A stretch of 64,000 nucleotides of DNA from Acidobacteriota bacterium (lineage in GTDB: Bacteria > Acidobacteriota > Vicinamibacteria > Vicinamibacterales > 2-12-FULL-66-21). The stretch is taken from positions 26 to 64,025 of the forward strand of contig JBKPNQ010000080.1 of NCBI GenBank assembly GCA_046732715.1. Reading direction: 5' to 3'. Position 1 is the stretch's first letter, and each line of letters starts with the position of its first letter. Below, piece by piece: positions 12,997 to 61,969 of the stretch. Position numbers and translations under genes: made by a program. The notes beneath the pieces are model-generated. The model was not told the DNA's origin and made no database searches. It worked only from the letters and a program-made list of their open reading frames with translations.

Positions 12997-13242
12997 CTAC
13001 TGGTCGTCGCGAAACTCCAGCGTCGCCCTGGTCCCTTCAAGCTCGGCGGTCGCACTCACCAGCGTGCGCATCGCTGCCGCGGTGCGACCCTGACGCCCGA
13101 TCACGCGGCCCAGTTCTCCCGGGGCCATGAACAGTTCGACCAGCGTCTGTCCTTTGTGCTGCCGTTCGGTCACCCGAACGGCGTCAGGACGATCCGCGAG
13201 CGCCTTGGCCACGACCTCGACGACGTCGCGGCAGCGGCTCAC
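12997..13242 (-). CDS. KH-domain RNA-binding protein (UPF0109/YlqC family)
   Basis: 81 aa; VIGRQGRTAAAMRTL KH GXXG motif; conserved position between rpsP and rimM. Confidence 0.85.
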   Translation of the reverse strand: MSRCRDVVEVVAKALADRPDAVRVTERQHKGQTLVELFMAPGELGRVIGRQGRTAAAMRTLVSATAELEGTRATLEFRDDQ

Positions 13243-13508
13243 GATGCTGGTTGCACCGCGGCTGGATCGGCCGCCGGCGGCATGCGGGCCACGAGCGTTC
13301 GCACGGTGTCCGATGGAACGGCGCCGGCCTTGATCCAGTGCTCGAGTCGATCCCGCTTCAGATCGAGCGTCTCCGGCTTCGTGCGCGGGTTGTAGTGCCC
13401 GAGCACTTCCACGAAACTGCTGTCGCGCGCCGTGCGCGAGTCGGTCACCACCACACGGTAGAATGGTCGCTTCTTCGAACCCGTACGTCTCAAACGAATT
13501 GCTAGCAT
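13239..13508 (-). CDS. rpsP: 30S ribosomal protein S16
   Basis: 89 aa; MLAIRLRRTGSKKRPFYRVVV N-terminus. Confidence 0.95.
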   Translation of the reverse strand: MLAIRLRRTGSKKRPFYRVVVTDSRTARDSSFVEVLGHYNPRTKPETLDLKRDRLEHWIKAGAVPSDTVRTLVARMPPAADPAAVQPAS

Positions 13509-13519
13509 CTCGCTTCGCT

Positions 13520-13598
13520 CCAGTTACCAGTTACCAGTTGCCAGTTACCAGTGGCCAGTTCACAGTGCTGGAAACTGGGAACTCGAAACTGGCAACTC
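13520..13598. repeat. Heptad array family A (CCAGTTN), inverted arms forming a long imperfect hairpin
   Basis: Left arm ccagtta ccagtta ccagttg ccagtta ccagtgg ccagttc; right arm ctggaaa ctgggaa ctcgaaa ctggcaa; fills the ffh-rpsP spacer. Confidence 0.9.
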
Positions 13599-13602
13599 AC
13601 AC

Positions 13603-14961
13603 TCACCGGTTCATCAACGACTTCATTGCCCCGAGGCCGCCCTTCTTCTTGCCGAGTCCGGCCATCCCGCCAATCGCCTTGAGCATCTTCTTCATCTGCA
13701 CGAACTGCTTCAGCAGGCGATTGATTTCCTCGACTGACGTGCCGCTCCCCTTCGCAATCCGTTTACGGCGGCTGCCGTTGATCACCTGGTGATTGCGTCG
13801 TTCGTGCGGTGTCATCGAGTTGATCATCGCCTCGATTCGATCCAGCTGTTTGTCGTCGACCTTCTCGCGATTGGCCGCGAGCTCCTTCATGCCGCTCATC
13901 CCGGGCAGCATGCCGAGGATCTGCTCGAGCGGTCCCATCTTCTTGATCGTCCGCAGCTGGTCGCGGAAATCCTCCAGCGTAAAGTCGTCCTGACGGAGTT
14001 TCTTTTCGAGCTTCTGCGCGTCCTCGATGGACACCGCTTCTTCGGCTTTCTCAATCAGCGACAGCACGTCGCCCATGCCGAGGACACGCGACACGACCCG
14101 GTCGGGATGAAACGGCTCCAGGTCCTGCAGGCGCTCGCCGCTGCCGACGAACGCAATCGGAACGCCGACGACGCCGACGACCGACAGCGCCGCGCCGCCG
14201 CGGGCATCGCCGTCCATCTTCGAGAGCACGACACCGCTGATCCCGATGCGCCGGTTGAATTCGCCGGCGCTCTTGATCGCATCCTGGCCGGTCATCGCGT
14301 CGGCCACGAAGAGCCGATCGGTCGGCTCGACGGCCGCCTGGATCGCCTGCAGCTCGTTCATCAACTCATCGTCGATGTGAAGCCGTCCGGCGGTGTCGAC
14401 AATGACGGTATCGAAGCCGCTGTTCCGGGCTTCGGCCATCGCGCCGCGCGCCCGCCGTACCGGATCGAGATCCCCGGACGGATCGTGAACGCGAACGCCG
14501 GCCTGTTTTCCAACAACGTTGAGCTGCTCGATGGCGGCTGGGCGTCGAACGTCAGTCGAGACCAGAATCGGATGCTTTCCCTGCTTGGCCAGCCATCGCC
14601 CGAGTTTTCCGGCGGTGGTCGTCTTACCAGAACCCTGCAGTCCGAGCAGCAGGACGACCCGCGGGTGGGCCTGCGAAGCCGGCAACCCGCCGGTGGTCTC
14701 CCCGAACAATGCGAGCATCTCGTCCCGGACGATACGCACGACCTGTTGTGCGGGCGTCAGGCTCTTCAGCACTTCCTGATCGACGGCGCGATCGCGGACG
14801 CGGTCGATGAATGCCTTGACGACCTTGAAGTTGACGTCCGCTTCGAGCAGCGCCATGCGGATCTCGCGAAGCGCCGCCTCGACGGTCGTCTCGGTCAACC
14901 GGGCTTCGCCGCGGAGCGAGCGAAATACTCCCTGCAGTCGGTCGCTGAGCGATTCAAACAT
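13603..14961 (-). CDS. ffh: Signal recognition particle protein Ffh
   Basis: 452 aa; GLQGSGKTTT, DTAGRL, Met-rich M domain. Confidence 0.96.
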   Translation of the reverse strand: MFESLSDRLQGVFRSLRGEARLTETTVEAALREIRMALLEADVNFKVVKAFIDRVRDRAVDQEVLKSLTPAQQVVRIVRDEMLALFGETTGGLPASQAHPRVVLLLGLQGSGKTTTAGKLGRWLAKQGKHPILVSTDVRRPAAIEQLNVVGKQAGVRVHDPSGDLDPVRRARGAMAEARNSGFDTVIVDTAGRLHIDDELMNELQAIQAAVEPTDRLFVADAMTGQDAIKSAGEFNRRIGISGVVLSKMDGDARGGAALSVVGVVGVPIAFVGSGERLQDLEPFHPDRVVSRVLGMGDVLSLIEKAEEAVSIEDAQKLEKKLRQDDFTLEDFRDQLRTIKKMGPLEQILGMLPGMSGMKELAANREKVDDKQLDRIEAMINSMTPHERRNHQVINGSRRKRIAKGSGTSVEEINRLLKQFVQMKKMLKAIGGMAGLGKKKGGLGAMKSLMNR

Positions 14962-15345: not shown

Positions 15346-16575
15346 TCAAACGGAAGTGAGCTTGTGGCCGAGTTTGGTTTTCTTGGTGGTCAGGTATCGC
15401 CGCGTGCTGTCGGATGCCGGAATCTCGAGCGGGAGCCACTCCTTGACCGACAGCTGATAACCCTCGATTCCAACCAGTTTTCGGGGGTTGTTCGAGAGGA
15501 GCCGCATGGAGCGAACGCCAAGGTCCTTCAAAATCTGAACCCCAATGCCATAGTCCCGCTGATCCGCCTTGAAACCGAGCCGCTCGTTTGCCTCGACCGT
15601 GTCGAGTCCCTGGTCCTGAAGTTCGTAGGCGCGAATCTTGTTCGAGAGCCCAATTCCGCGCCCCTCCTGATTCAAGTACAACAGCACCCCTCTGCCCTCG
15701 GTCGCAATCCGGTGCATCGCCGCGTCCAGTTGTGGACCGCAATCGCACCGCGCGGAGTGGAAGACGTCGCCGGTCAGGCAGCGCGAGTGCACGCGCACCA
15801 GCACATTTTCACCATCGCCGAGATCGCCCTTGACCAGCGCGACATGGGTTTCACGATCGATCACGCTTTCGAACGCAAACACCTTGAAGTCGCCGTGCTC
15901 GGTCGGGAGACTCGCGGTCGCGACTCGATGCACCAGCCCCTCGGTACGCAGCCGATACTGAATCAGGTCGGCCACGGTAATCATCAGCAGCTTATGGCGG
16001 CGGGCAAACTTCGTCAGCTCCGGCACCCGCGACATCGTCCCATCGTCGTTCATGATTTCGCAGATGACGCCGGCCGGATAAAGTCCGGCGATGCGGGCGA
16101 GGTCGACCGCCGCCTCGGTTTGGCCGGCACGCACGAGCACGCCGCCGTTGCGCGCCTTGAGTGGGAACATGTGGCCGGGACGCGCAAGATCGGACGGCCT
16201 CGTGCGGGGGTCGATGGCCGCAAGCACCGTGGCCGCGCGATCGCTTGCTGAAACACCAGTGCTCGTGACCGCTTTCGCATCGATCGACACGCTGAAGGCC
16301 GTACCAAGTCGCGCCGTATTGGGCCCCACCATCTGCGGCAGATCCAGCTCGGTGAGCCGATCTTCGGTCATCGGAATGCAGATCAAGCCGCAGCCATGTC
16401 TGGCCATGAAATTGACCGCCTCCGGCGTGATCTTCTCCGCAGCGATCGTCAGGTCTCCCTCGTTCTCGCGATCTTCATCATCAACGACGATGATCATCTG
16501 TCCATTGCGAATCGCCTCGACCGCGGCTTCAATCGGGGCGAAGGGTGACTTCTTCTTACGAGTTTTCGTAGCCAT
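15346..16575 (-). CDS. ribBA: Bifunctional 3,4-dihydroxy-2-butanone-4-phosphate synthase / GTP cyclohydrolase II
   Basis: 409 aa; DHBPS half (VVDDEDRENEGDL) and GCHII half (RCLTGDVFHSARCDCG). Confidence 0.95.
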   Translation of the reverse strand: MATKTRKKKSPFAPIEAAVEAIRNGQMIIVVDDEDRENEGDLTIAAEKITPEAVNFMARHGCGLICIPMTEDRLTELDLPQMVGPNTARLGTAFSVSIDAKAVTSTGVSASDRAATVLAAIDPRTRPSDLARPGHMFPLKARNGGVLVRAGQTEAAVDLARIAGLYPAGVICEIMNDDGTMSRVPELTKFARRHKLLMITVADLIQYRLRTEGLVHRVATASLPTEHGDFKVFAFESVIDRETHVALVKGDLGDGENVLVRVHSRCLTGDVFHSARCDCGPQLDAAMHRIATEGRGVLLYLNQEGRGIGLSNKIRAYELQDQGLDTVEANERLGFKADQRDYGIGVQILKDLGVRSMRLLSNNPRKLVGIEGYQLSVKEWLPLEIPASDSTRRYLTTKKTKLGHKLTSV

Positions 16576-16651: not shown

Positions 16652-17257
16652 TACCGGCTTGGTCGAGAAGCCGGCCAGCTCGGCGACCCGGACGACGTAC
16701 TTACCGAGAATGTCACATTCAATGTTGACGAGATCGTCGGGCTTCGCGCTGTGCAGGTTCGTGTGTTGCCAGGTGTAGGGAATGATCTGCACGTCGAAAC
16801 GGCGATCGTCGAGTCCCGCAATCGTGAGGCTGATGCCGTTCACCGCGATCGAGCCTTTCCTGACCAGATACGGCGCGAGCAACGCCGGATACTTGATCGT
16901 CACCCAATATGAATCGCCATCCTGACGGATGTCCTCGATCGTCCCAGTCGCATCAACGTGGCCCTGTACGAAGTGGCCCCCGAGGCGCGCATCGGCACGA
17001 AGCGGACGTTCGAGATTGACGACTGCGCCACGCCGAAGCGCACCCAGCGCGCTGACCCGGGCGGTTTCTGGCGAGATATCGGCGTGAATGTCGGCCGCAT
17101 CGCACGACACGGCGGTCAGGCAGACGCCGTTCACTGACAGGCTGTCGCCTGGCGTGATTTCCGCAGCCAGCGTCGTCGTCAACCGGAGCCGGAACCCCGC
17201 CGGTGTCGGCTTGACCTCCGCCACTTCCCCAAGTGCCTCAATCAGCCCTGTGAACAT
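16643..17257 (-). CDS. ribE: Riboflavin synthase alpha subunit
   Basis: 204 aa; MFTGLIE N-terminus, two lumazine-binding repeats (GDSLSVNGVCLT / GSIAVNGISLT). Confidence 0.93.
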   Translation of the reverse strand: MFTGLIEALGEVAEVKPTPAGFRLRLTTTLAAEITPGDSLSVNGVCLTAVSCDAADIHADISPETARVSALGALRRGAVVNLERPLRADARLGGHFVQGHVDATGTIEDIRQDGDSYWVTIKYPALLAPYLVRKGSIAVNGISLTIAGLDDRRFDVQIIPYTWQHTNLHSAKPDDLVNIECDILGKYVVRVAELAGFSTKPVDR

Positions 17258-18311
17258 ACCCTTCTATCAGGATATCGGCCCCGAGACGCTTTCGTGTGAC
17301 CGGGCCGAGCCCCGGAAGGGGCAGCGAAAGCCACTCCAGGCCGTCCCTCCCCAAACGGTGCGGGGTCATGTACATCTGGACGCGATCGACGAACCCGCCG
17401 TCCCAGAACGCGCGATGCAGTGTCGTCCCGCCCTCGACGATCATGGACGAAATGCCGCCGGCGGCCAGCTGCTCCAGCGTCTCGCCCAGGGTCCCTGCGA
17501 CCAGAATGCCGGCACCGGCCGCGGCCAGCACGTCGCCTCGTTTCTCATCCCGCTCGGACGTCGGCCTGCTACTGACAATTATCACCGGGCCACTGCTCAG
17601 CGTCGAGAACAGCCTGGCGCCGGGAGGGGTGCGGAGCCGCGAGTCAAACACGACGCGGACGAGCGGCCGGTAGCGAAACGCCCCACGAGGGGTCAGCGCA
17701 GGATCGTCGGCCAGCACCGTCGAGGAGCCAACGGCAATCGCGTCGACCTCCGCCCGGTCCCTATGAATGAGCCGAAATGCGGAAGCACCGGTCAACGGCG
17801 TTCGTACGCCCGGACGGAGCGCGATCCGATGATCGGCGCTCATGGCGACCTTGATCGTGATGAAGGGGCGCCTCCGCGTCATCACGCAGAAGAACGGCGC
17901 ATTGAGCGCGCGTGACTCGGATTCCAGCACCCCGGTGGACACGGCGATACCGCGGGAGCGCAGGATCTCGAGGCCGCGTCCGTTCACGCGCGGATTCGGA
18001 TCGCCTGTTGCAGCCACGACCCGGGCCACGCCTGAATCAGCAACGACCGGTGCGCACGCACCGGTTCGCCCGACGTGGCTGCATGGCTCGAGGGTGCAGT
18101 AAAGCGTCGCTCCCCTGGCGCGCGTCCCGGCATCACGCAGCGCGTGGACTTCGGCGTGCGCTCCTCCGGCCTGTTCATGGAACCCGCGGCCGACGACAAC
18201 TCCGTCAGCGTCGACGAGTACCGCGCCGACCATGGGATTGGGGCTTGTGCGGCCGCGGCCGCGCTCAGCCAGCGCCAGCGCACGGGCCATGTAATCAGAG
18301 TCGGTGAACAC
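17238..18311 (-). CDS. ribD: Bifunctional diaminohydroxyphosphoribosylaminopyrimidine deaminase / 5-amino-6-(5-phosphoribosylamino)uracil reductase
   Basis: Deaminase zinc motifs HAEVHAL and LEPCSHVGRTGAC; reductase C-half; track start 18395 translates the heptad array, trimmed to GTG 18311 (alternative ATG 18290). Confidence 0.92.
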   Translation of the reverse strand: MFTDSDYMARALALAERGRGRTSPNPMVGAVLVDADGVVVGRGFHEQAGGAHAEVHALRDAGTRARGATLYCTLEPCSHVGRTGACAPVVADSGVARVVAATGDPNPRVNGRGLEILRSRGIAVSTGVLESESRALNAPFFCVMTRRRPFITIKVAMSADHRIALRPGVRTPLTGASAFRLIHRDRAEVDAIAVGSSTVLADDPALTPRGAFRYRPLVRVVFDSRLRTPPGARLFSTLSSGPVIIVSSRPTSERDEKRGDVLAAAGAGILVAGTLGETLEQLAAGGISSMIVEGGTTLHRAFWDGGFVDRVQMYMTPHRLGRDGLEWLSLPLPGLGPVTRKRLGADILIEGYVHRAD

Positions 18312-18323: not shown

Positions 18324-18387
18324 AGTTCCCAGTTTCCAGTCTCCAGTTACCAGTTTCTCAACACTGGAAACTGGGAACTGGCAACTG
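18324..18387. repeat. Heptad array family A hairpin
   Basis: agttccc agtttcc agtctcc agttacc agtttc - tcaaca - ctggaaa ctgggaa ctggcaa ctg; fills the ftsY-ribD spacer. Confidence 0.9.
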
Positions 18388-18388
18388 A

Positions 18389-19312: not shown

Positions 19313-19318
19313 TGATCT

Positions 19319-19349
19319 CAGTTTCCAGTTCCCAGTTTCCTGTTTCCAG
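19319..19349. repeat. Heptad array family A, single-armed
   Basis: cagtttc cagttcc cagtttc ctgtttc cag, starts 7 nt upstream of the ftsY ATG. Confidence 0.85.
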
Positions 19350-19354
19350 CCATC

Positions 19355-19422
19355 GTCAATCGGCAATCTCGATCCCGCAATCGGCACCCGCCACAATCAG
19401 CAATCAACAATCGCCAATCGAT
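19355..19422. repeat. Heptad array family B, single-armed, directly abutting the family A array
   Basis: gtcaatc ggcaatc tcgatcc cgcaatc ... agcaatc aacaatc gccaatc gatc; ends at the gpsA stop. Confidence 0.85.
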
Positions 19423-21015: not shown

Positions 21016-21071
21016 GGTTTGGGTTTTGGGTTTTTTGGGGTTTCGTTCTTCAAAACCTAAAACCTAAAACG
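21016..21071. repeat. Heptad array family F (GGGTTTT / AAAACCT) hairpin
   Basis: ggtttgggttttgggttttttggggttt - cgttcttc - aaaacctaaaacctaaaacgg; thpR-plsY spacer. Confidence 0.85.
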
Positions 21072-21086
21072 GACAAGCGTTAGCAC

Positions 21087-21668: not shown

Positions 21669-21753
21669 AATTGCTGGTTTTCGATTGTTGATTGCTGGTC
21701 GATTGGATCACTTCATTCAACAATCAACAATCAACGATCAGCGATCGGCAATT
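21669..21753. repeat. Heptad array family B hairpin
   Basis: aattgctggttttcgattgttgattgctggtcgattg - 12 nt - caacaatcaacaatcaacgatcagcgatcggcaatt; cinA-thpR spacer, contains the cinA stop. Confidence 0.88.
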
Positions 21754-25293: not shown

Positions 25294-25378
25294 CAGCTTC
25301 CAGCTTCCAGCGAGTTCAGTTTCCAGTTTCCAGTTTCCAGTTGCCAGTTTCGCGAATCGCGAATCGCGAATCGCGATT
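25294..25378. repeat. Composite single-armed heptad arrays: family A (25294-25350) abutting family D CGCGAAT x4 (25351-25378)
   Basis: cagcttc cagcttc cagcgag ttcagtt tccagtt tccagtt tccagtt gccagtt t | cgcgaat cgcgaat cgcgaat cgcgatt; divergent spacer. Confidence 0.9.
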
Positions 25379-26304: not shown

Positions 26305-26346
26305 GTTGCGAGCTTCCCGCGACTCGCGAACTAGCGACTTGCGACA
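26305..26346. repeat. Heptad array family D variant (GCGACTN), 6 heptads
   Basis: gttgcga gcttccc gcgactc gcgaact agcgact tgcgaca; fills the convergent spacer. Confidence 0.75.
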
Positions 26347-26349
26347 AGG

Positions 26350-27742: not shown

Positions 27743-27814
27743 AGTTGCCAGTTGCCAGTTGCCAGTTACCAGTTGGACGAAAAGACACACCGCTGGAAAC
27801 TGGTTACTGGAAAC
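27743..27814. repeat. Heptad array family A hairpin
   Basis: agttgcc x3 agttacc agttgg - 16 nt - ctggaaa ctggtta ctggaaa c; between kinase stop and regulator start. Confidence 0.9.
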
Positions 27815-27822
27815 ATCCAGAG

Positions 27823-33189: not shown

Positions 33190-33294
33190 GAATTGCTGAT
33201 TGTTGATTGTTGATTGAGGATCCGGCAGGTCGTTTACCCAAACGAGCGATCGGCATTTCACCAATCAGCATGAGCAATCGTCAATCAGCAATTC
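33190..33294. repeat. Heptad array family B hairpin with 13-bp perfect outer stem
   Basis: gaattgctgattgttgattgttgattga - 43 nt - ccaatcagcatgagcaatcgtcaatcagcaattc; starts 1 nt after the stop codon. Confidence 0.88.
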
Positions 33295-33320: not shown

Positions 33321-33322
33321 AG

Positions 33323-36816: not shown

Positions 36817-36846
36817 CGCTCGCGGCTCGCGATTCGCGGCTCGCAG
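36817..36846. repeat. Heptad array family D variant (CTCGCGG/CTCGCGA/TTCGCGG), 4 heptads
   Basis: ctcgcgg ctcgcga ttcgcgg ctcgcag between the groEL stop and the terminator. Confidence 0.7.
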
Positions 36847-38941: not shown

Positions 38942-40105
38942 GTGGGAACGATGGACGCCATCGACGTCGCGATCATCGGCGGCGGGCCCGCCGGCTGCCG
39001 CGCCGCGTGGCGCCTTGCGCGCGCCGGAACGCGCGTGGCGCTGTTCGACGGAAGCCATCCGCGCGAGAAGCCGTGCGGTGGCGGTGTCACCGGGCGAGCG
39101 CTCGATCTCGTCCGCGACGCGATCGACGTCGCTTCGCTCCGTGCGGTGGCCATCGACGACGTCGCCTTTGAGCATGGCTCACGCCGGGCACGCGTCCAGC
39201 TCGGCGCCGGAACCGGACCAACTCCACAACTCACCGTCGCATCCCGCACGGCCTTTGATGGGACACTGCTCGCTGCTGCGGTCGGAGCGGGCGCGACGTT
39301 TCACGCCGAACGAGTGACGAGCATCGTCCCCGAGCGCGATGGCTGGATTATCGCGACAGCGCAAACCGTGACGCGCGCCGACTGGCTGCTCGGCGCCGAC
39401 GGGCCGAACAGCTTCGTTCGTCGACGAGTCGGTCAGCCGTTCGCACGGGCCGACCTGTCAATCGCGACCGGGTTTTTCGTTCATGGTATCGAATCGCGCA
39501 GCGTCGCCATCGCGTTCGAAGACGAGCCCCCTGGATACCTCTGGTCGTTTCCACGCCCCGACCACCTGGCGGTTGGTGTGTGCGCGCAGGCCGATGCGTC
39601 ACACGCCGCACCACTGCAGGCCGCAGCCTCCAAGTGGATTGCGCAACACGTCCAAGGATCCTTCACGCTGGAGCGATACAGCTGGCCCATCCCTTCACTG
39701 CGCGAATCGACCATCGAACGGGAACGACCGTTCGGCGAGCGCTGGATGCTGCTCGGCGACGCCGGCGGCATGGTCGATCCGATCACGCGCGAAGGGATTT
39801 TCTTCGCTCTGCTGTCCGGCGATGCTGCTGCCGACAGCCTCCTCGACGCAGTCAGGCCCGGCGTTCGATATGGCGACCGGATCCGGGCGTCGGTGTACGA
39901 CGAACTCCTCCGTGCGGCGCGCCTCAAGGCGCGCTTTTTCAATCCACGCTTTACCGCGCTTCTCGTGCGCGCCCTCCAGCAGAGCGCGTCCATCCGCGAG
40001 ATCATGGCGGACCTCGTCGCCGGCCGACAGACGTATCGCGGATTACGGCGGCGTCTGCTCGGGACACTGCAGGTGAGGTTGTTGGTGGAGATGATGAAGA
40101 GTTGA
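38942..40105 (+). CDS. FAD-dependent oxidoreductase, geranylgeranyl-reductase-like
   Basis: VAIIGGGPAGCRAA dinucleotide fold, KPCGGGV motif. Confidence 0.8.
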   Translation: MGTMDAIDVAIIGGGPAGCRAAWRLARAGTRVALFDGSHPREKPCGGGVTGRALDLVRDAIDVASLRAVAIDDVAFEHGSRRARVQLGAGTGPTPQLTVASRTAFDGTLLAAAVGAGATFHAERVTSIVPERDGWIIATAQTVTRADWLLGADGPNSFVRRRVGQPFARADLSIATGFFVHGIESRSVAIAFEDEPPGYLWSFPRPDHLAVGVCAQADASHAAPLQAAASKWIAQHVQGSFTLERYSWPIPSLRESTIERERPFGERWMLLGDAGGMVDPITREGIFFALLSGDAAADSLLDAVRPGVRYGDRIRASVYDELLRAARLKARFFNPRFTALLVRALQQSASIREIMADLVAGRQTYRGLRRRLLGTLQVRLLVEMMKS

Positions 40106-40189
40106 AAGTGAAAAGTGAAAAGTTAAAAGTGTTGGCTGCTCATATTTGAGCTTTGCACTTTTAACTTTTAACTTTTCACTCTCACTTCA
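40100..40189. repeat. Heptad array family C (AAAGTGA/AAAGTTA) hairpin between convergent genes
   Basis: agttgaaagtgaaaagtgaaaagttaaaagtg - 24 nt - cacttttaacttttaacttttcactctcacttca; both flanking stop codons lie inside the arms. Confidence 0.9.
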
Positions 40190-43200: not shown

Positions 43201-43203
43201 CCT

Positions 43204-43224
43204 GACTTTTAACTTTTAACTTTC
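43204..43224. repeat. Heptad array family C, single-armed (3 heptads)
   Basis: gactttt aactttt aactttc; encodes the last residues KVKS and the stop of rnr; 3 nt from the selB start. Confidence 0.8.
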
Positions 43225-45530
43225 TTCTTCGCCCGCTCGCGCTTGCCGAGCCGGAGCGCACGGCGCCGGTCCGACTTCGTCTTCACCTTGGCCGTTTTTT
43301 CCTGACCTCGCATCGCGTCCCGGCCTGGTCCTCGGAATTCGCCGTCGGTTGCGCGCGACGTGCGCGGTCCGCGGTTTCGTTCGGACGCGCGCACGCGATC
43401 GAGGATCTCCGTCAGTCCAAGATCGACCTGCCGTCGTTCCATGTCGACCTTGATCACCTGCACCGACACTTTGTCGCCGAGCCGGTAGACGCGACCGGTG
43501 TTTTCGCCTCGCAGAATGTGAGCACGCTCGACGAATCGATAGTAGTCATCGGCCATGGTCGAGACGTGAACGAGACCTTCCACGAAGTGCTCGATTAACT
43601 CGATGAACAGCCCGAACGCGGTCACACCGGTGATGTAGCCTTCGAACTCGTCGCCGACCTTGTCGGCCATGAACCGGACCTTCTTCCACTGCACCAGCTC
43701 ACGCTCCGCATCGTCGGCGCGGCGTTCGCGTTCGGAGGTGTGGCGCGCCATCTCGGGCAGATCGTCGATGAGCTCGTCCTTCCGATCGGCGTTCATCCGA
43801 TCGTGGCGTGACTCGCGCAAGGTGCGGTGCACGATGAGGTCGGGATACCGCCGAATCGGCGAGGTGAAGTGGGTATAGCTCTTCGCCGCGAGGCCGAAAT
43901 GTCCGCGGTTCTGTTCGTCGTACCGCGCTTTTTGCATGGTGCGCAGCATCAGGAACGCGATCGGCTTCTCTTCCGGCGTGCCCCGCATCTTCTCGACGAG
44001 TTTCTGGAAGTGACGCGGCTTCACGTCGTTCGGCGGTGCGCCCAGGCTGTATCCAAGTGTCGAGACGAATTCCTCGAACTCTTCGACTTTCAGCGGATCG
44101 GGATCCTCATGAACGCGATACACGGTGGGGACATCGCGATCGGAGAGATGTTGGGCAACCGTTTCGTTGGCGAGGAGCATGAACTCCTCGATGATCCGGT
44201 GTGCGATGTTCCGCTCGGCAGCGATGATCGCCTCCACCATACCCTGGTCGTCCAGAACGATTTCCGGCTCCTTCAGATCAAAGTCGATGGAGCCGCGCCG
44301 ATGGCGACGCTTGTTCAGGATCTCGAAGAGTTCATGCATCGATTCGAACAACGGCACGAGCGCCTGATACTGGGCAGTCGTCTCCGGATCACGCACGGTC
44401 AAGATCGCGTTGACCTCGGTGTAAGTCATGCGGGCAGCGCTGTGAATCACGCCGTCGTGCAGCTCGTACCGAACGACCGCACCGCGCCGATCCACTTCCA
44501 TCAGGCAGGACTGAACGAGGCGATCCACAGCGGGATTCAGGCTGCAAAGGCCGGTCGCCAGTTCAGACGGAAACATGTGGACGGCACGGTCCGGGAAATA
44601 GACCGAGGTGGCGCGATCGTATGCTTCCTCGTCGAGAACGGAGCCTTCTTGTACGTAATGGGCGACGTCAGCGATATGGACGCCGAGCCAGTAGTTTCCG
44701 TTCGGAAGCCTCTCCAGGCTGATCGCGTCGTCAAAGTCGCGGGCGTGCTCGCCGTCGATGGTGACGATGGTCAGTGGCCGAAAGTCGGTGCGGCCTCGAA
44801 TGTCCTTATCCTGGACCGATGTGCCGATCCGGCGCGCTTCTTCAACCGCCTCGGGGCTGTGCGCGTCCGGGATCCCGTACTTCCTGATGATGATTTCGTT
44901 ATCGACGCCGGGCTCGTCGATGTCCCCGAGTACTTCGATGATTCGGCCGAGTGGCCCGCGCGTCGGCGTCGGCCAACGCGTGATTTCCACCACCACCATG
45001 TCGCCGGGGTCCGCGTCCATGCGTTCGTCCGACGGAATCTGCACGTCCATGATGAGGCGACGATCGAACGGCACCACGAATCCCAGGCCGGACGCGTCGA
45101 TATCAAACCGGCCGACGACGGAGGCCGATCCGCGCTCGAGAATGCGGACGATTCGCCCTTCGACACGGCCGTCGCTGGCCCGCTCGATCCGCGCAACCAC
45201 ACGGTCGCCGTGCATCGCCTGATTCAGGTTGCTGCCGGCGATGAAAATGTCTCCCTTGGCATCCTCGAGTGGACGGTCGGGGACAACGAATCCAAAGCCG
45301 CGCGGGTTCGTCGTCACCTTCCCGACGACCAGGTTCATTCGATCCGGAACCCCGAACCGGTTCCCACGCGTTTGAACGAGCGCGCCGCTCTCGACCAGCT
45401 CCGAAAGGAGCTTCTTGAAGGTCGGCCGCTCGTGCCGAGGTAGTTTGAGTTTTTGCAGCAGCTCGCGAGGAGTCGCCGGATGATCCAGCTTGTCGCGAAT
45501 CAGCGTCAGGAGCTGCTCGTGATTCAGCAT
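43209..45530 (-). CDS. rnr: Ribonuclease R
   Basis: N-terminal HTH/CSD (NPRGFGFV), RNB catalytic domain, S1 domain, basic C-terminal tail; trimmed from 45779 to MLNHEQLL (ATG 45530). Confidence 0.93.
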   Translation of the reverse strand: MLNHEQLLTLIRDKLDHPATPRELLQKLKLPRHERPTFKKLLSELVESGALVQTRGNRFGVPDRMNLVVGKVTTNPRGFGFVVPDRPLEDAKGDIFIAGSNLNQAMHGDRVVARIERASDGRVEGRIVRILERGSASVVGRFDIDASGLGFVVPFDRRLIMDVQIPSDERMDADPGDMVVVEITRWPTPTRGPLGRIIEVLGDIDEPGVDNEIIIRKYGIPDAHSPEAVEEARRIGTSVQDKDIRGRTDFRPLTIVTIDGEHARDFDDAISLERLPNGNYWLGVHIADVAHYVQEGSVLDEEAYDRATSVYFPDRAVHMFPSELATGLCSLNPAVDRLVQSCLMEVDRRGAVVRYELHDGVIHSAARMTYTEVNAILTVRDPETTAQYQALVPLFESMHELFEILNKRRHRRGSIDFDLKEPEIVLDDQGMVEAIIAAERNIAHRIIEEFMLLANETVAQHLSDRDVPTVYRVHEDPDPLKVEEFEEFVSTLGYSLGAPPNDVKPRHFQKLVEKMRGTPEEKPIAFLMLRTMQKARYDEQNRGHFGLAAKSYTHFTSPIRRYPDLIVHRTLRESRHDRMNADRKDELIDDLPEMARHTSERERRADDAERELVQWKKVRFMADKVGDEFEGYITGVTAFGLFIELIEHFVEGLVHVSTMADDYYRFVERAHILRGENTGRVYRLGDKVSVQVIKVDMERRQVDLGLTEILDRVRASERNRGPRTSRATDGEFRGPGRDAMRGQEKTAKVKTKSDRRRALRLGKRERAKKKVKS

Positions 45531-50047: not shown

Positions 50048-51489
50048 GCGGGAGTCTTCTCCAGTTCGCGCCGGACGAGTGAGTTCACTAGCGCCGGATT
50101 CGCCTTACCACCCATGGATTTGATGACCTGTCCGACGAGAAATCCGTAAGTCTGCTTCTTCCCAGCTCGATACTGCTTGACGGCGTCGGCGTGTGCGGCG
50201 AGCACCTTCTGCACAGCCGCCTCGACCGACGCTTCATCGTCAATCCGAGCAAGTCCTTCGGCTTCGACGATAGCGGCGGCGGATAGGCCGGAGCCGTACA
50301 TCTTTTCGAAGACCTCTTTGGCCGTGGGGCCGCTTATCGTGCCGGCGTCCACGAGCCGGATCAGTCCCGCCAAAGCCTCGGGCGTCAGCGCCACGGCCTC
50401 TATATCGGCGCCAAGCTCGTTCAACTTGCGGGTGAGCTCTCCCATGATCCAGTTGCTGGCTGACTTCGCGTTGCCCGCCGCGGCGGCCGTGTGTTCGAAA
50501 TAGGTCGCCAGCGCCTGCGATTGCGTCAGCACCCCGGCGTCGTAGTCGGGCAAGGCGTACTGCTCGACAAACCGTCGCCGACGCGCGTCGGGTAGCTCCG
50601 GAAGCGTTCGCTTCGCCTCTTCAATCGTGGCGGCCGCAATCCGCAGCGGCGGGAGATCCGGCTCGGGGAAGTACCGGTAATCGTGCGCTTCTTCTTTACT
50701 CCGCATCGACAACGTGCGGCCGGCGGCGGTGTCCCATAACCGGGTCTCGTGTTCAACGGTTCCGCCTGATTCGATCACAGCGATCTGACGCTCGATCTCG
50801 TGGTCGAGCGCGCGCTGCACGTGACGGAAGGAATTGAGATTCTTGATCTCGGTCTTGACGCCAAATGGCTGCCCGGGGCGCCGCACCGAGATGTTGGCGT
50901 CGCAACGAAGGCTGCCCTCCTCCATGTTGCCGTCGGTCACCCCCGTCGCCACCAGCACCGCACGCATGCGGCTGAAATACTCGGCCGCTTCCGCGGCCGA
51001 TCGGACGTCCGGGTGGCTGACGATTTCAATGAGCGGCACGCCGCTGCGATTGAAATCGAGCGCGGTCATGCGGTCCGAGTCGGGCAAACCCTCGTGCAGG
51101 GATTTGCCGGCGTCCTCTTCGAGGTGAACGCGAATGATCCCGACGCGGCGCGACTCGCCGCGCGACTCGAATTCGAGCGCGCCATCAGTCGCGAGCGGCA
51201 GGTCGTACTGGGAGATCTGATAGCCCTTCGGCAGGTCAGGATAGAAGTAGTTCTTCCGCGCAAAGATCGACGTCTGATGGACCGTGCAGCCGAGCGCGAG
51301 AGCGGCCTTGATCGCCAGTTCCACCGCACGCCGATTGAGCACCGGCAGGGCGCCTGGCAGCCCGAGGCATACCGGACAGGTGTTGACGTTGGGCGGCGCA
51401 CCGAACCGCGTGCTGCAACCGCAGAACAGTTTGCTCTCGGTCTGAAGCTGTGTATGGATCTCGAGACCGATGACAGGCTCAAAGGGCAT
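50044..51489 (-). CDS. gatB: Aspartyl/glutamyl-tRNA amidotransferase subunit B
   Basis: PVIGLEIHTQL, NRSGVPLIEIV; trimmed from 51543 (heptad-array translation) to ATG 51489. Confidence 0.95.
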   Translation of the reverse strand: MPFEPVIGLEIHTQLQTESKLFCGCSTRFGAPPNVNTCPVCLGLPGALPVLNRRAVELAIKAALALGCTVHQTSIFARKNYFYPDLPKGYQISQYDLPLATDGALEFESRGESRRVGIIRVHLEEDAGKSLHEGLPDSDRMTALDFNRSGVPLIEIVSHPDVRSAAEAAEYFSRMRAVLVATGVTDGNMEEGSLRCDANISVRRPGQPFGVKTEIKNLNSFRHVQRALDHEIERQIAVIESGGTVEHETRLWDTAAGRTLSMRSKEEAHDYRYFPEPDLPPLRIAAATIEEAKRTLPELPDARRRRFVEQYALPDYDAGVLTQSQALATYFEHTAAAAGNAKSASNWIMGELTRKLNELGADIEAVALTPEALAGLIRLVDAGTISGPTAKEVFEKMYGSGLSAAAIVEAEGLARIDDEASVEAAVQKVLAAHADAVKQYRAGKKQTYGFLVGQVIKSMGGKANPALVNSLVRRELEKTPA

Positions 51490-51574
51490 TGCTGATGGTC
51501 GATTGCTGATGTTCGATTGTTGATTGTAGTCGGCATTCAACAATCAGCAATCGAAAATCAGCAATTGCAATCAG
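51488..51574. repeat. Heptad array family B hairpin
   Basis: attgctgatggtcgattgctgatgttcgattgttgattg - 11 nt - caacaatcagcaatcgaaaatcagcaattgcaatcag; spans from the gatB start codon to the upstream stop codon. Confidence 0.9.
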
Positions 51575-52638
51575 CGCTTCTGAAGCGCGGTGACCATTCG
51601 GCTGAAGGCCTCGACGACCAGCGGATCGAACTGAGTGCCGCTGCAGCGTTCGAGTTCCAGCAGCGCCTCGTCCTGGCCAATCGCGTCACGGAACACTCGA
51701 GGCCGCGTCATGGTGTCGTAGGCGTCGGCGACACAGACGATGCGGGCGCCAATCGAGATCTCGGAGCCTCGCACGCCGCGGGGATATCCCAGTCCATCAA
51801 CCCGCTCGTGTGATTGCCGGACGATGGCTGCGGCCCGCTCCAAATACGGCACCGCCGCGATGATGTCGCTGCCGATCGCCGGATGGCGCCGGACGAGCAT
51901 CACCTCTTCCACCGTGAGCGCCGCTGGTTTGCGCAGCACAGCTTCCGGTACGGCAAGTTTGCCGATATCGTGCAGCAGCGCGCCGTGCCCGATCGTCGAC
52001 AGCGCCTCATCGGGCAGCCCGAGCATCCGCGCCACGTTGACCGCCAGCGCCGCCACGCGATAGCCGTGCGCATACGCGTCGCGATCGGTCAGCGTCAGCA
52101 TCGCGATCATCGAATCGAGCGTCTCGTCGTCGTGAATCTTGACTGCCGCGATCGCATCGCTGATTCGCGTTCGGCGGATCATCATCTCCTGCTCGAGCGA
52201 TTCCCGCCAGCGGCGGGCGTCCCACGCCGATTCGTGCCACTCGAGACCGCGAGTCACCGCCTCGCGTAATCGGTCGCGGCCGAAGGGCTTGGTGAGATAG
52301 TCGATCACTCCCTGCCGCAGCGACGCGACCGCGGGACCGACGTCATGCACCCCCGTGGCCATAATCACGGCGGTCTCCGGGTACTGATGTCGAATTTGCT
52401 CGGCGAGCCAGATGCCGTCATGTCCCGGCATCCTGATGTCGCAGAGCGCGACCGCTGGCGGCGTCGTCTCGAACTGACCGAGCGCTTCCTCGGCGCTACC
52501 CGCGGTCGTCACGTCGTAGCCACCTGATTCGAGCCATCTCGCCATCAGGTTCCGCACGCAGTGTTCATCGTCAACAACGAGCACGCTGTTGGCGCGCGCG
52601 TCGTCGCGAAGCGCATGCTTCGAATCTTTCAATGTCAT
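51571..52638 (-). CDS. Response regulator with HD-GYP domain (probable c-di-GMP phosphodiesterase)
   Basis: REC (VLVVDDE...CDIRMPG...) plus HDIGKLAV and HERVDGLGYP; trimmed to MTLKDSK (ATG 52638). Confidence 0.88.
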   Translation of the reverse strand: MTLKDSKHALRDDARANSVLVVDDEHCVRNLMARWLESGGYDVTTAGSAEEALGQFETTPPAVALCDIRMPGHDGIWLAEQIRHQYPETAVIMATGVHDVGPAVASLRQGVIDYLTKPFGRDRLREAVTRGLEWHESAWDARRWRESLEQEMMIRRTRISDAIAAVKIHDDETLDSMIAMLTLTDRDAYAHGYRVAALAVNVARMLGLPDEALSTIGHGALLHDIGKLAVPEAVLRKPAALTVEEVMLVRRHPAIGSDIIAAVPYLERAAAIVRQSHERVDGLGYPRGVRGSEISIGARIVCVADAYDTMTRPRVFRDAIGQDEALLELERCSGTQFDPLVVEAFSRMVTALQKR

Positions 52639-52656
52639 AACCCGTGGTTTCCCCTT

Positions 52657-52677
52657 GCTTTTAACTTTTAACTTTTT
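52657..52677. repeat. Heptad array family C, single-armed (3 heptads)
   Basis: gctttta actttta acttttt, immediately after the upstream stop codon. Confidence 0.8.
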
Positions 52678-54112
52678 ACGCCTCCGCCATCTCGGCGTTC
52701 TCACGACGGCGCGTAATGGTGTCGGAGAGATCGAGGCGCTCGAGTCTCCGGTAGAGCGCGCGGCGGCTCAGACCGAGCATCTTTGCGGCCGCCTTCTTGT
52801 TTCCGCCTGCCCTGACCAGTGCGCGCTGAATGTGTTCGCGCTCCACCGTCGCAAGTAGCTCCTTGCCGGTGGCATCGTCCGGCGCGCCTCGAGAGGCGGA
52901 ATCGGCGCCGGCGCGGCCGGCGTGCGTAGACACCGGCGGCATGCTGATCGCCAGTTCACGTTCGGAAATGAACTCGCCTTCAACGAGGATGCATGCGCGC
53001 TCGATGACGTTCCGAAGCTCGCGCACGTTGCCTTCCCAATAGCCGGCAGCGAGCAGTCGCTCAGCACCAGGGGTCAGGCCGGCCACGGGTTTCTGCAGTC
53101 GCTCGCTGGTTTCCCTCACGAATGCTGCGGTCAAGTAGGGAATATCTTCGCGCCGCTCGCGCAGCGGCGGTAGCTTCACTTCGACGACATTCAACCGGTA
53201 AAACAGATCGCTGCGGAAGCGCCCAGCGGCAATTTCGGCGCGAAGGTCACGGTTCGAGGCGGCGATCACGTGCACGTTGACGCGGCGTCCGTCGAGCGAT
53301 CCGACGCGGTGCATTTCGCCAAGCTCGAGAACGCGCAGCAGTTTGGCCTGAAGCGCCGGTGGCAGCTCGCCGATCTCGTCGAGAAACAACGTGCCACCGT
53401 CGGCCAGTTCCAGCAGGCCCGGCTTGTGCTCCGTGGCACCGGCAAAGGCGCCGCGCACGTGCCCGAACAGCTCGCTTTCGAACAGCGTGTCGACGACAGA
53501 CGAACAGCTGACGGTCACGAAGCGTCGATCGCGGCGCGGGCCGATCTGATGGAGTGCACGCGCCACCAGCTCCTTGCCGGTGCCGGTCTCTCCCGTGATC
53601 AGCGCCGCCCGTACGTGCGGCGCGAGCCGGCGGATCATGCTGAAGAGCTCCTGCATGATCGGTCCGCGACCGACCATGCCGCAGAACTCCAGCCGTCGCG
53701 CAACGTCCCCCTCCATCGCGAGCAGACTGCGGCGGCGCTCCGTCTCTTCACGAATCGTCGTCAACAGCTGGTCGAGCCGGCCGAAGTCGAGCGGCTTGCT
53801 CAGGTAATCCATCGCACCCAGCTTGACGGCTTCGACCGCGGTCTCGACCGCCGCGTAGCCGGTCATGAGCACGGTCTGACACCGCGGATCCATGTCACGA
53901 ATCGCGCGAATCACGTCCAGGCCACCGAGATCCGGCATTCGCAAGTCGACCAGCGCGACATCGGCGTGTCGCGCACCAAGCTCGGCGATCGCCTGTCGCC
54001 CACCAGAGCACGCAATCACCTCGAATCCGGCGCGGCGTGCGAAGCGATCGACAACGTCTCGAATTCCCTGTTCGTCATCCACGACGACGAGGACCGGAGG
54101 CTGAGCGGTCAT
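52676..54112 (-). CDS. Sigma-54-dependent response regulator (REC + AAA+ + HTH) with a GAFAGA loop
   Basis: VLVVVDDE..., [22 protein letters not shown] (Thr to Ala in the GAFTGA loop), C-terminal HTH; ATG 54112 overlaps the kinase stop (ATGA). Confidence 0.9.
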
Positions 54113-56716: not shown

Positions 56717-56720
56717 TGAC

Positions 56721-56783
56721 TCGCAATTCGCAATTCGCGGTTCGCAATTCGCGGTTCGCAATTCGCGGCCCGCAATTCGCGTT
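56721..56783. repeat. Heptad array family D (TCGCAAT/TCGCGGT), 9 heptads with 14-nt super-period
   Basis: tcgcaat tcgcaat tcgcggt tcgcaat tcgcggt tcgcaat tcgcggc ccgcaat tcgcgtt. Confidence 0.92.
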
Positions 56784-60683: not shown

Positions 60684-61904
60684 GTGAGCGCCCCGCAGCC
60701 CTTGATTTTTCGCAAGGGCCTCGACATGAAGGAAGCCGTCGCGGGCGAGCTCGCAGCGGCCTACGATAGCGCGCTCGTCGATCGCGTCCGCGCGAGCGAC
60801 TTCCAATTCACAAGCGGCCGCCTGATCGTCCATCTCGCCCGCGAATTCGGGTTCTGCTACGGCGTCGATCGCGCCGTGGATTATGCCTACCAGGCGCGGC
60901 GGCGGTTTCCAGGCCGGAACGTCTTTCTGACCGGCGAGATCATCCACAATCCGTACGTCAACGATCGGCTGCGGAGTGAAGGCATCCGCTTCCTGACGGA
61001 TCCGGGCGAACATGCCGACCGCCTCGGAAAAGACGACGTCGTGATTCTTCCGGCGTTTGGCGTGACCGTTCGTGAAATGGCCCGCCTGTCAAACCAGGGA
61101 TGCACGCTCGTCGACACGACCTGTGGATCGGTCTTGAACGTCTGGAAGAACGTCGTCCGCTACGCGCAGGACGGATACACCGCAATCATTCACGGAAAAG
61201 TCAAACACGAAGAGACACGGGCGACCGCATCGCAGGCACTCAAGTATCCGCAGGGCCGCTACCTTGTCGTCCTCGATCGCGTCGAGGCGGCGATTGTCTG
61301 CGACTACATCCGGCATGACGGCGATCCGGCGGCATTGCTGGAGCGATTCGCGGGAGCCTTCTCGCCCGGATTCGACCCGGACGTCGATCTCCAGCGCGTC
61401 GGGTGCGCCAATCAGACGACGATGCTGATGACGGAGTCGCTGGAAATTGGTGAGATGTTTCGGGCCGCCATGCGCGACCGCTACGGCGAGGAGGCGCTCG
61501 CGTCGCGCTTCCGCGCATTCGACACCATCTGCAGTGCGACGCAGGAACGACAGGACGCGGTGATTGCGCTGCTCGAGCACCAGACACCCGATTTGATGCT
61601 CGTGATCGGGGGCTATAACAGCAGCAACACCTGTAATCTTGCGAGAATCTGCGCGGCCAAGGTGCGGACGTATCACATCGCCGACCCCGGCTGTCTTCTG
61701 TCAGGGGACGAGATCCGCCACCGGCCGGTGGGGGCGCCGTCAACCACGTCCGGTCTCGAGGAAACGTCCCGTGGATGGCTACCGCCGACCGGCACCCTGG
61801 TCGTGGGCCTGACGGCCGGCGCCTCGACGCCCAACAACATCGTCGGTGAAGTGATTCGAAAGCTGGAAGGCTTCTGTGCTGACACACAGAAAGTTAAAAG
61901 TTAG
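60684..61904 (+). CDS. ispH: 4-hydroxy-3-methylbut-2-enyl diphosphate reductase (long form)
   Basis: 406 aa; FGFCYGVDRAV, TGEIIHNP, CATQERQDA-type Cys motifs (ICSATQERQ), GGYNSSNT; last residues KVKS and stop lie in a heptad array. Confidence 0.9.
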   Translation: MSAPQPLIFRKGLDMKEAVAGELAAAYDSALVDRVRASDFQFTSGRLIVHLAREFGFCYGVDRAVDYAYQARRRFPGRNVFLTGEIIHNPYVNDRLRSEGIRFLTDPGEHADRLGKDDVVILPAFGVTVREMARLSNQGCTLVDTTCGSVLNVWKNVVRYAQDGYTAIIHGKVKHEETRATASQALKYPQGRYLVVLDRVEAAIVCDYIRHDGDPAALLERFAGAFSPGFDPDVDLQRVGCANQTTMLMTESLEIGEMFRAAMRDRYGEEALASRFRAFDTICSATQERQDAVIALLEHQTPDLMLVIGGYNSSNTCNLARICAAKVRTYHIADPGCLLSGDEIRHRPVGAPSTTSGLEETSRGWLPPTGTLVVGLTAGASTPNNIVGEVIRKLEGFCADTQKVKS

Positions 61905-61968
61905 GAAAGAGGCTGGGGGCGATCCTGTCTTATTACTTCTAACTTCTGACTTCTAACTTTTAACTTTC
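61888..61968. repeat. Heptad array family C, asymmetric hairpin between convergent genes
   Basis: agaaagttaaaagttagg - 29 nt - acttcta acttctg acttcta actttta actttc. Confidence 0.85.
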
Positions 61969-61969
61969 A

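Follow-up and report, generated by a model that had tools for sequence, protein, structure and literature searches.

Why should the spacers between genes as ordinary as ffh and rpsP be filled with long hairpins whose two arms pair well except at every seventh position? This question is raised by a 64,000-nt stretch of DNA (G+C 64%) from an Acidobacteriota bacterium of the order Vicinamibacterales (GenBank assembly GCA_046732715.1, contig JBKPNQ010000080.1, positions 26 to 64,025 of the forward strand), which is called the window throughout. In the window, tandem copies of the heptamer CCAGTTN, here named Family A, form such hairpins in three spacers and stand as single arms at two further sites. 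A preliminary description, made from the letters alone, had placed the two-armed arrays at ffh|rpsP, ftsY|ribD and kinase|regulator and single arms at 19319-19349 and 25294-25350, and had suggested RNA processing or stability, translational insulation or protein binding as possible roles inside operons, which is taken here as the idea of a dedicated RNA device. The sequence and Tandem Repeats Finder (TRF) confirm where the arrays lie and how many arms they have; the device is another matter and is taken up below. Family A belongs, with other families, to a dense population of period-7 repeats, all of them intergenic, in the genome of this unusually repeat-rich soil bacterium of the Vicinamibacterales, and the arrays turn over fast between relatives, one of them differing in unit number and homogeneity between strains. 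With rather more belief than doubt, we propose that the loci are hairpin-forming heptanucleotide microsatellites of the class known as short tandemly repeated repetitive (STRR) sequences or long simple sequence repeats (LSSR), turned over by slippage, tolerated in spacers and, if transcribed, giving generic stem-loops like those of repetitive extragenic palindromes (REP).

The Family A hairpins and the origin of their phased mismatches

The motif CCAGTTNCCAGTT, with at most one mismatch, occurs 24 times in the window as against 0.06 occurrences expected from shuffled sequences. Period-7 arrays were found by TRF at 13520-13560, 13568-13597, 18324-18357, 18363-18387, 19319-19349, 25317-25351 and 27743-27775, and every Family A arm holds 3.6-5.9 head-to-tail copies, which is above the three copies that define a heptamer array. 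Variant units have been amplified blockwise, giving a superstructure of period 14 or 21.

The first hairpin (13515..13602) fills the 94-nt spacer at 13509-13602 between ffh (13603-14961) and rpsP (13239-13508). Its arms lie at 13520-13560, with six CCAGTTN units on the plus strand, and at 13568-13598, with NAACTGG-type units on the plus strand, around a loop at about 13561-13567; the GGAG motif of rpsP is part of the last repeat unit. The second (18324..18388; arms 18324-18357 and 18363-18388) lies in the 98-nt spacer between ftsY (18389-19312) and ribD (17238-18290), where it abuts the ftsY stop codon (18389-18391), the ribD ATG being at 18290. The third (27743..27816; arms 27743-27775 and 27794-27816, loop about 18 nt) lies in a 96-nt spacer between the genes for an NtrY-like histidine kinase (27823-30114) and a sigma-54 response regulator (26350-27726). 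The products are those that had been named before, namely, Ffh, ribosomal protein S16, FtsY, RibD, a kinase and a regulator; all six genes are on the minus strand and all three spacers are co-directional. Of the single arms, the one at 19318..19349 (minus strand) reads (NAACTGG)n on the transcribed strand and stops 5 nt before the ftsY ATG (19312), while the one at 25294..25350 (plus strand) lies in a divergent spacer and consists of two CAGCTTC units followed by five CCAGTTN units.

On the transcribed minus strand the ffh|rpsP spacer (94 nt) folds with -38.4 kcal/mol (z -3.8), which none of 200 shuffles equalled, and the ftsY|ribD spacer (98 nt) with -36.9 kcal/mol (z -6.1). The kinase|regulator spacer (96 nt) is weaker, and at -27.6 kcal/mol (z -1.9), equalled by 8 of 200 shuffles, it is marginal against shuffled sequence. 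The hairpins at ffh|rpsP and ftsY|ribD are each one long stem in which helices of 4-11 bp are parted by single mismatches 7 nt apart, and the phasing that had been read from hand pairing of the ffh|rpsP arms thus stands. Folded as single-stranded DNA, the ffh|rpsP hairpin gave -18.2 (z -3.1), which is again significant.

The source of this rhythm is to be found in the repeat unit itself. Among the 34 Family A units of the window the per-position entropy, from position 1 to position 7, is 0.71, 0.32, 0.19, 0, 0, 0.80 and 1.86 bits, so that G4 and T5 are invariant and the seventh base is nearly random. When position 7 was compared with the facing position of the other arm at 18 two-armed loci, Watson-Crick pairs were found in 18 of 61 cases against 15.5 +/- 3.3 in shuffled data; complementarity and anti-complementarity at the seventh base were both rejected because this is the chance level. 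The mismatches recur every 7 nt because two independent arrays, whose unit has one free position, pair with each other. The pattern is neither a set of designed bulges nor the product of compensatory evolution. The edges of the arrays are degenerate as well: 93 aligned outer ends show a decaying repeat only, with no sharp terminus or target-site duplication among them; many ends read GTAG or TAGTT. The gap between arms varies continuously from -4 to 106 nt and the number of units from 2 to more than 10, and the three window hairpins are unlike in their loops and in their position-7 patterns.

Heptamer arrays in the window, in relatives and between strains

The window holds 14 arrays of period 7 as against 0-3 for each other period from 4 to 12, and a looser mask gives 16 array loci in the 64 kb, all of them non-coding once over-extended starts of open reading frames are discounted. 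Over all the loci examined period 7 predominates likewise, with 729 arrays as against 82 of period 6 and 41 of period 8 among the matches listed. At least six families of heptamer unit are present and all form two-armed hairpins of one architecture. The excess of period 7, the dispersed intergenic loci and the several unit sequences are those of the heptanucleotide class.

The Ffh of the window is nearest (85%) to that of Acidobacteriota metagenome-assembled genomes (MAGs) of the class Vicinamibacteria, and the gene order gpsA-ftsY-ribD-ribE-ribBA ... ffh-rpsP-khpA-rimM-trmD-rplS is kept across Vicinamibacteria relatives. At ffh|rpsP, the relative L001 (85% Ffh identity) has a two-armed Family A hairpin (-31.4 kcal/mol, z -3.6) that differs from that of the window in unit numbers, seventh bases and loop. 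The spacer is absent from L002, whose ffh stop codon overlaps the next start codon in TAATG. The two-armed hairpins of L005 and L009 consist of unrelated heptamers (CTTAAGT and GGCTCTA), L003 combines octamer and heptamer arrays with a GC hairpin, plain GC hairpins stand in L004 and L006, and L007, L008, L010 and L012 have short spacers free of repeats. At ftsY|ribD the hairpin is absent from L001 and a period-8 two-armed hairpin is found in L004, while gpsA|ftsY of L001 has a two-armed array of period 8-9 with a 75-nt loop. Conversely, the convergent spacer that holds AAAGTKA units in the window (40100..40182) has a Family A hairpin instead in L163. The hairpins are therefore dispensable, they recur at the same spacers and their sequence is not conserved.

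Closer strains were obtained by exact-protein look-ups, which gave four short contigs; the look-up with GroES yielded none. Three contigs are 99.7% identical to the window and their Family A hairpins are unchanged except for one substitution, the ffh|rpsP hairpin of L201 and L202 being identical or one substitution away. In L204, which is 97.3% identical, the kinase|regulator hairpin is identical. Since the hairpins are found in independent metagenome contigs from three samples at 97.3-99.7% identity, they are real and not an artefact of assembly. Two other arrays do differ in L204. At 25294-25350 there are eight substitutions and a 2-nt indel, the 77 nt leftward being identical, and at 26305-26349 L204 has a clean (AGCGAAT)x6 where the version in the window is degenerate and 19 nt shorter. 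These differences indicate, from a small sample and from an array outside Family A, that arrays expand, contract and homogenise in place. Over 25216-27885 the divergence between the window and L204 is a mosaic, about 3.4% in the formiminotransferase gene and 0.3% in the neighbouring response-regulator gene, which hints at a recombination boundary close to the convergent spacer in which this heptamer array lies.

Two of the other arrays in the window lie next to Family A. A GATTGNN array (19350..19422, minus strand, GATTG on the transcript) fills the remainder of the gpsA|ftsY spacer, and four copies of the self-complementary unit TCGCGAA (25350..25376) abut the array at 25294-25350. The degenerate GCGA-type array at 26305..26349 fills its convergent spacer. 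Two-armed hairpins are formed by GGTTTTN and AAAACCT units (21018..21073), by ATTGYTG and CAATCAG units upstream of purC (33191..33292, loop about 45 nt), by AAAGTKA and TMACTTT units that fill the convergent spacer at 40100..40182, by ATTGCTG-type units between a gene for an HD-domain response regulator and gatB (51488..51575), and by AAAGTTA and TAACTTY units at a convergent gene pair (61885..61969). The others are a TCAACAA array in a co-directional spacer (21713..21746), a GCTCGCG-type array that separates the groEL stop codon from a canonical terminator (36818..36844), three ACTTTTA units between the RNase R gene and selB (43202..43225), three CTTTTAA units at the 5' end of the HD-domain response-regulator gene (52655..52680), and a partly self-complementary TCGCAAT/TCGCGGT array of period 7 and 14 (56718..56781). 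When both strands were folded, eight of ten hairpin or array regions gave -25 to -46 kcal/mol; the GGTTTTN hairpin was weaker, with -27 on one strand and -16 on the other, as was the short TCGCGAA array with -17 on both. The host genes are ordinary housekeeping genes, and the 47 window genes scanned against Pfam include no transposase and no REP-associated tyrosine transposase (RAYT).

The arrays also affect gene annotation. All three reading frames run through them without a stop and GTG and TTG codons occur in them, and for this reason gene callers carry downstream genes through them. An example is the strain contig L203 (2218-2571, equal to the window from about 18395 downward), in which the public ribD call takes its start from within the hairpin or upstream of it and runs into ftsY. 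Comparison with relatives puts the true start of ribD at the ATG at window position 18290.

Other repeats were observed along the way. Window positions 1-383, upstream of a gene for a Mur ligase, hold 1.9 copies of a 207-bp unit (96% identity) that is rich in short CGCT/GCTCGC repeats. At 33291-33321 there is a perfect direct repeat of 15 nt (ATTCCCTGATCTCTC, 2.1 copies), which directly follows the ATTGYTG hairpin and stops 2 nt short of the start codon of purC, and a period-8 array (AATTGGTG, 4.2 copies; 34497-34530), the sole clear octamer array of the window, lies after a small gene for a Fis-type helix-turn-helix protein and upstream of groES. The RNase R gene is at 43209-45779 and the ACTTTTA array sits in the 8-nt gap to the downstream selB; in E. 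coli it is RNase R that breaks down stem-loops of the REP type. In the contig L013, inverted GATTGAC arrays flank stretches of 215-260 nt (2149-2431 and 5500-5818). That these two pairs share a cargo was rejected, since the interiors are unrelated and the arrays alone are common to both, and so they are not copies of one element. L054, from a Desulfuromonadales MAG and hence another phylum, reached solely through Ffh similarity, has, at 8592-8717 and 17508-17529, an array of about 100 nt that drifts from CAGGAGC to ACAGAGG and also GTGAGGA arrays.

RNA-level tests and the weighing of explanations

If the stems were kept as RNA, the transcribed strand should accept G.U pairs but not A.C pairs. 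This was examined in 116 co-directional period-7 hairpins from the window, related loci, and metagenome and viral contigs, restricted to loci of at least 55% G+C; the genes were called by a heuristic based on G+C at third codon positions, with some error of classification. Among the matches listed, the sense strand has 119 G.U pairs as against 136 A.C pairs, and 41 hairpins are richer in G.U and 42 in A.C. By minimum free energy (MFE), the sense strand is the more stable in four of the seven co-directional hairpins of the window and the antisense strand in three. Optimisation of the RNA fold on the sense strand was rejected on both the MFE comparison and the pair counts. Covariation was not found, pairing at position 7 of the two arms being at chance level, and a search of Rfam 15 gave nothing at any Family A locus at E <= 1. 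Elsewhere in the window Rfam gave two sub-threshold matches, both likely to be spurious; one of them, at 16349-16451 on the plus strand inside the ribBA coding region, is to the Vibrio antisense RNA AS9 (41 bits against a gathering score of 50, E = 3e-4) and is probably due to chance. The strand and covariation results give no support to selection on RNA structure, though an effect at the RNA level may exist; RNA processing, RNA stability or protein binding may likewise play a part, but no positive evidence for them was found. The dedicated RNA device of the preliminary description is thus not upheld, as the seventh position is free and neither strand is favoured. It is weakened further by the genome-wide population of period-7 repeats of many units at every type of intergenic site, and by orthologous spacers that are often empty or hold hairpins of unrelated repeats. 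As to the conservation of arm complementarity in relatives, which had been put forward as a check, an orthologous Family A hairpin is present in L001 and covariation was not found.

That the hairpins are not compact GC-rich terminators and lack a U-tract had also been noted before, and this holds at all three. Neither the compact GC-rich stem nor the U-tract of an intrinsic terminator is seen at the Family A loci: no U-run was found 3' of the three hairpins, and terminator and promoter scans of the three spacers picked up no site. A terminator role is excluded by this anatomy. A canonical intrinsic terminator is present 3' of groEL at 36845-36875, where GGCCGGCTG...CAGCCGGCC is followed by TTTTTT, and it shows that the organism does employ U-tract terminators.

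What we propose instead is that the arrays arise and change through replication slippage or misalignment in non-coding DNA, and that inverted pairs would persist because the stretch from a stop codon to the following ribosome-binding site tolerates such insertions. Read through as part of an operon mRNA, they would give long bulged stem-loops, and this is the weakest step. Such stem-loops may then have the effects of intercistronic REP hairpins, holding up 3' exonucleases or possibly serving as a substrate of RNase III, and they would neither terminate transcription nor regulate specific loci. Two-armed arrays typically start 0-11 nt after the upstream stop codon and end at most about 25 nt from the next start codon, and this placement in operon spacers is how any insertion into a compact operon spacer looks.

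A number of results weigh against this proposal. They come in part from metagenome contigs scanned for three consecutive CCAGTT cores (at least 120 loci, G+C 35-70%) and from viral contigs scanned for the same pattern (73 loci, 27-69% G+C, some contigs with many hairpins), a sample that was chosen by the pattern itself. The two arms are not interchangeable: among the matches listed, the CAGT-type arm is the 5' one in 33 metagenome pairs and the 3' one in 6 (p = 1e-5), and in viral contigs the numbers are 94 and 12 (p = 6e-17), these pairs being non-independent as they come from 29 loci. The three pairs of the window all have the CAGT-type arm 5', by inspection, one of them having been recovered by the script. 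The deviation from the modal base of the array, outside the seed, is 0.26, 0.18, 0.11, 0.03, 0.08, 0.23 and 0.31 for positions 1 to 7 among the matches listed, so that a (C)AGT core is conserved while the flanking positions of the unit drift, and the CCAGTTN unit recurs, again among the matches listed, in DNA of 27-70% G+C that includes viral contigs. Simple neutral slippage does not explain the polarity, the conservation of the CAGT core or the spread across taxa and viruses. In addition, two-armed arrays lie in 116 co-directional, 9 convergent and 9 divergent spacers among the matches listed, which is a modest enrichment over the 642, 124 and 102 adjacent gene pairs of these kinds (chi-square p = 0.004), and about half of the relatives keep some stable hairpin at ffh|rpsP; both hint at a benefit. 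No change in unit number was seen at the three Family A hairpins in the strains of 97.3-99.7% identity (four short contigs), so that they are not hypervariable over this span of divergence, and any effect of the hairpins at the RNA level is an inference.

Several observations bear on polarity and on the wider spread. Two hairpins of L111 (80-210 and 11920-12060) have the reverse polarity, with the AACTGGG arm first and second arms of GTTCCCC or GTTCCC, the period slipping from 7 to 6. As both are on one contig, polarity may be genome-specific. As a cause of polarity, fold-back priming was considered, in which the CCAGTT strand would pair with itself by G.T wobbles; it was rejected, since the AACTGG arm folds as well or better (5' arm better in 19 cases, 3' arm in 32, ties in 19). 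AACTGAT-type arrays share contigs with CCAGTTN arrays, and L118 carries a CCCCAGT unit. Among single-armed arrays, 7 of 17 that read AACTGG lie within 18 nt of a start codon as against 1 of 13 that read CCAGTT (Fisher p = 0.09, among the matches listed). In the viral contig L207 three hairpins share an inner stem AAGAG...CTCTT between the arrays, and in L206, L209 and L213, also viral, the loops hold a second heptamer family (AAGGCAA), giving nested composite elements. Two stretches, one from L207 and one from L211, were compared with GenBank phages by megablast and gave no match.

The hairpins could instead be selected elements of operon RNA that tune the expression of their neighbours as RNase III sites, mRNA stabilisers, translational-coupling stems or terminators without a U-tract, their repeat nature being incidental. 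The very stable folds of eight of the ten regions would suit this, as would a stem base that juxtaposes the stop codon and the next ribosome-binding site (the GGAG of rpsP lying within the last unit), the enrichment in co-directional spacers, the frequency with which relatives have some hairpin at ffh|rpsP, and the filling of both convergent spacers, 40100 and 61885, by hairpins. However, G.U pairs are not in excess over A.C pairs on the sense strand (119 as against 136 pairs and 41 as against 42 hairpins among the matches listed), the MFE favours the sense strand in four of seven hairpins only, compensatory change at position 7 was not found, a canonical terminator with a U-tract is used elsewhere in the window, and the hairpins are dispensable in relatives, as the TAATG overlap of L002 and the ftsY|ribD spacer of L001 demonstrate. 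We regard such selection as unlikely. An array of binding sites for a sequence-specific nucleic-acid-binding protein, with one protomer per 7 nt in inverted geometry, is another candidate explanation, and the protein might be a nucleoid-associated or "global regulator" type if the target is DNA, or S1, a cold-shock-domain protein or a CsrA-type protein if it is RNA. The CAGT core is kept while neighbouring positions vary, the orientation of the unit is fixed relative to the dyad, and the same core recurs across very different genomes; AACTGG-reading single arrays tend to lie at start codons, as in the ftsY leader, a proximity reported for TAACTGA too (PMC4679880), and in Nostoc the output of a reporter changed when a heptamer repeat was deleted (bioRxiv 10.1101/2022.06.06.494920). 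A single binding protein would explain the conserved core and the polarity most simply, but it is hard to square with at least six unrelated unit sequences that behave alike within 64 kb. Nor does it fit well with gaps between arms that span -4 to 106 nt, with arrays of 2 to more than 10 units, with orthologous sites that are empty or hold other units, or with positions that are not fixed relative to promoters or start codons, and no candidate protein was identified. We consider it unlikely.

Movement of whole palindromes as small non-autonomous mobile elements, either like REP or REPIN (REP doublets forming hairpins) or like miniature inverted-repeat transposable elements (MITEs), by a transposase encoded elsewhere in the genome, such as a RAYT or an IS200/IS605-type enzyme acting on single-stranded DNA hairpins, would explain the clean presence and absence of a whole hairpin at ftsY|ribD between the window and L001. 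It would also accommodate the strong polarity of the arms, which is known from REPINs and inverted terminal repeats, the intergenic sites that often begin 0-5 nt after a stop codon, the ends that often read GTAG or TAGTT, the occurrence in many taxa and in viral or prophage contigs, and the inner stem AAGAG...CTCTT common to copies in some viral contigs. What argues against it is that the edges decay gradually, without sharp termini or target-site duplications, that the window copies differ in loops and position-7 patterns and the sizes are continuously distributed, that the GATTGAC pairs of L013 have their arrays and not their interiors in common, that arrays have expanded in place between strains, that no transposase was found among the 47 window genes scanned, and that a build of tandem heptamers is unlike any described REP. 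A MITE with a TA target duplication in particular was rejected on the 93 outer ends, and the terminal inverted repeats, duplication and discrete lengths of MITEs are lacking where the gap is continuous and the interiors of L013 are unrelated. Mobility of this kind is improbable in our view. Polarity, the CAGT core and the spread over unrelated bacteria and viruses might also reflect one sequence-specific machinery that writes, copies or binds the arrays, which we hold to be quite improbable; it could be a transposase or nuclease acting on single-stranded hairpins, slippage templated from CTG/CAG and linked to a primase or polymerase, or an RNA- or DNA-binding protein with a heptamer register. 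In that case heptamer repeats would form a class of genetic element of their own, one not recognised until now, and would not be passive microsatellites. Even taken jointly, the readings that call for a specific protein or a mobility mechanism seem to us a minor prospect. Whichever explanation is preferred, the comparisons add three quantitative constraints for any account of heptamer repeats, namely, that the unit strongly prefers one orientation with respect to the dyad of the hairpin, that the CAGT core is conserved and the positions on either side of it are free, and that operon-internal spacers are preferred without a strand-specific RNA signature.

Comparison with known repeat systems

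A REP is one palindrome of 20-40 nt in which a 5' GTAG is conserved, and it goes with a cognate transposase of the RAYT type. Like REPs, REPINs and bacterial interspersed mosaic elements, the present hairpins are abundant, species-specific, imperfectly palindromic and intergenic, common after stop codons and inside operons, and replaced by one another at orthologous spacers; as stable stem-loop transcripts they may, as REPs can, protect upstream mRNA. They differ in being tandem heptamers with fuzzy ends and variable size, and no RAYT was found for them in the 64 kb examined. The 5' GTAG with a short palindrome in near-identical copies that marks REP and REPIN is not what is seen, the ends being graded and heterogeneous and the loops different.

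Paired arrays have been described in Geobacter metallireducens, where dozens of tandem arrays stand in pairs on opposite strands, one of them between proB and proA (Aklujkar 2009, PMC2700814). Each consists of 3-5 tandem hepta- to nonanucleotides at variable spacing, the pairs are absent from G. sulfurreducens, and they were read, without a test, as "global regulator binding sites" for IHF or HU (PMC2700814). Family A resembles these paired sites in form only, as the Geobacter units are GTTGCTYN, TCTCCGTS and MTYCTGA and some lie at fixed distances from insertion sequences, which is not seen here. In Xanthomonas and Nostoc, GGGAATC and GGGGAYT repeats are intergenic and occupy the same spacers in related species with varied length and sequence (Rehm 2015, PMC4692102), and some of the Xanthomonas GGGAATC arrays are inverted pairs able to form stem-loops (PMC4692102). 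Those repeats are G-rich and were studied as formers of G-quadruplexes, whereas Family A cannot form a G-quadruplex. In Nostoc the removal of a heptamer repeat changed reporter output (bioRxiv 10.1101/2022.06.06.494920).

Intergenic heptanucleotide repeats, the cyanobacterial STRR, have reportedly been noted since the work of Mazel in 1990. STRR1 of cyanobacteria, which we take to be CCCCAGT, shares the CAGT core. Tandem 7-nt units, an excess of period 7, dispersed intergenic loci and several families per genome are common to STRR/LSSR and to the arrays described here; the former are of another lineage and have not been described as systematic inverted pairs with a preferred polarity. We know of no demonstration that STRR/LSSR arise by slippage. 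According to the summaries of Mrazek (2007) given in PMC4679880 and PMC4692102, heptanucleotide repeats are the most over-represented long simple sequence repeats in many bacteria and are mostly intergenic, and polymerase slippage was proposed as their source. In the literature searched there is no account of such arrays in Acidobacteriota, nor of a preferred polarity of arms.

The nearest relative by unit is TAACTGA. Its repeats occur in marine Beggiatoaceae, in cyanobacteria and in Bacteroidetes and stand immediately ahead of start codons, some of these in ribosomal-protein operons (MacGregor 2015, PMC4679880), and S1, Csp or CsrA-type proteins were suggested as their binders (PMC4679880). 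On the other strand TAACTGA reads TCAGTTA, one base from the CCAGTTA found here. Both kinds of repeat are intergenic, come in 2-6 or more copies per set, are found at ribosomal-protein operons, have no known function and can stand in forward orientation directly upstream of a start codon, in the window at ftsY. In the Beggiatoa genome, however, inverted repeats make up 1 of 170 sets (PMC4679880) while about a third to half of the arrays described here are two-armed, and a free seventh base, an acidobacterial host and the co-existence of many heptamer families also set them apart. Since the unit NAACTGG is one base off TAACTGA, Family A is a sister family of these repeats and not a member. The loci lie outside REP, MITEs, terminators and curated RNA families, and it is the heptanucleotide-repeat class that they fit.

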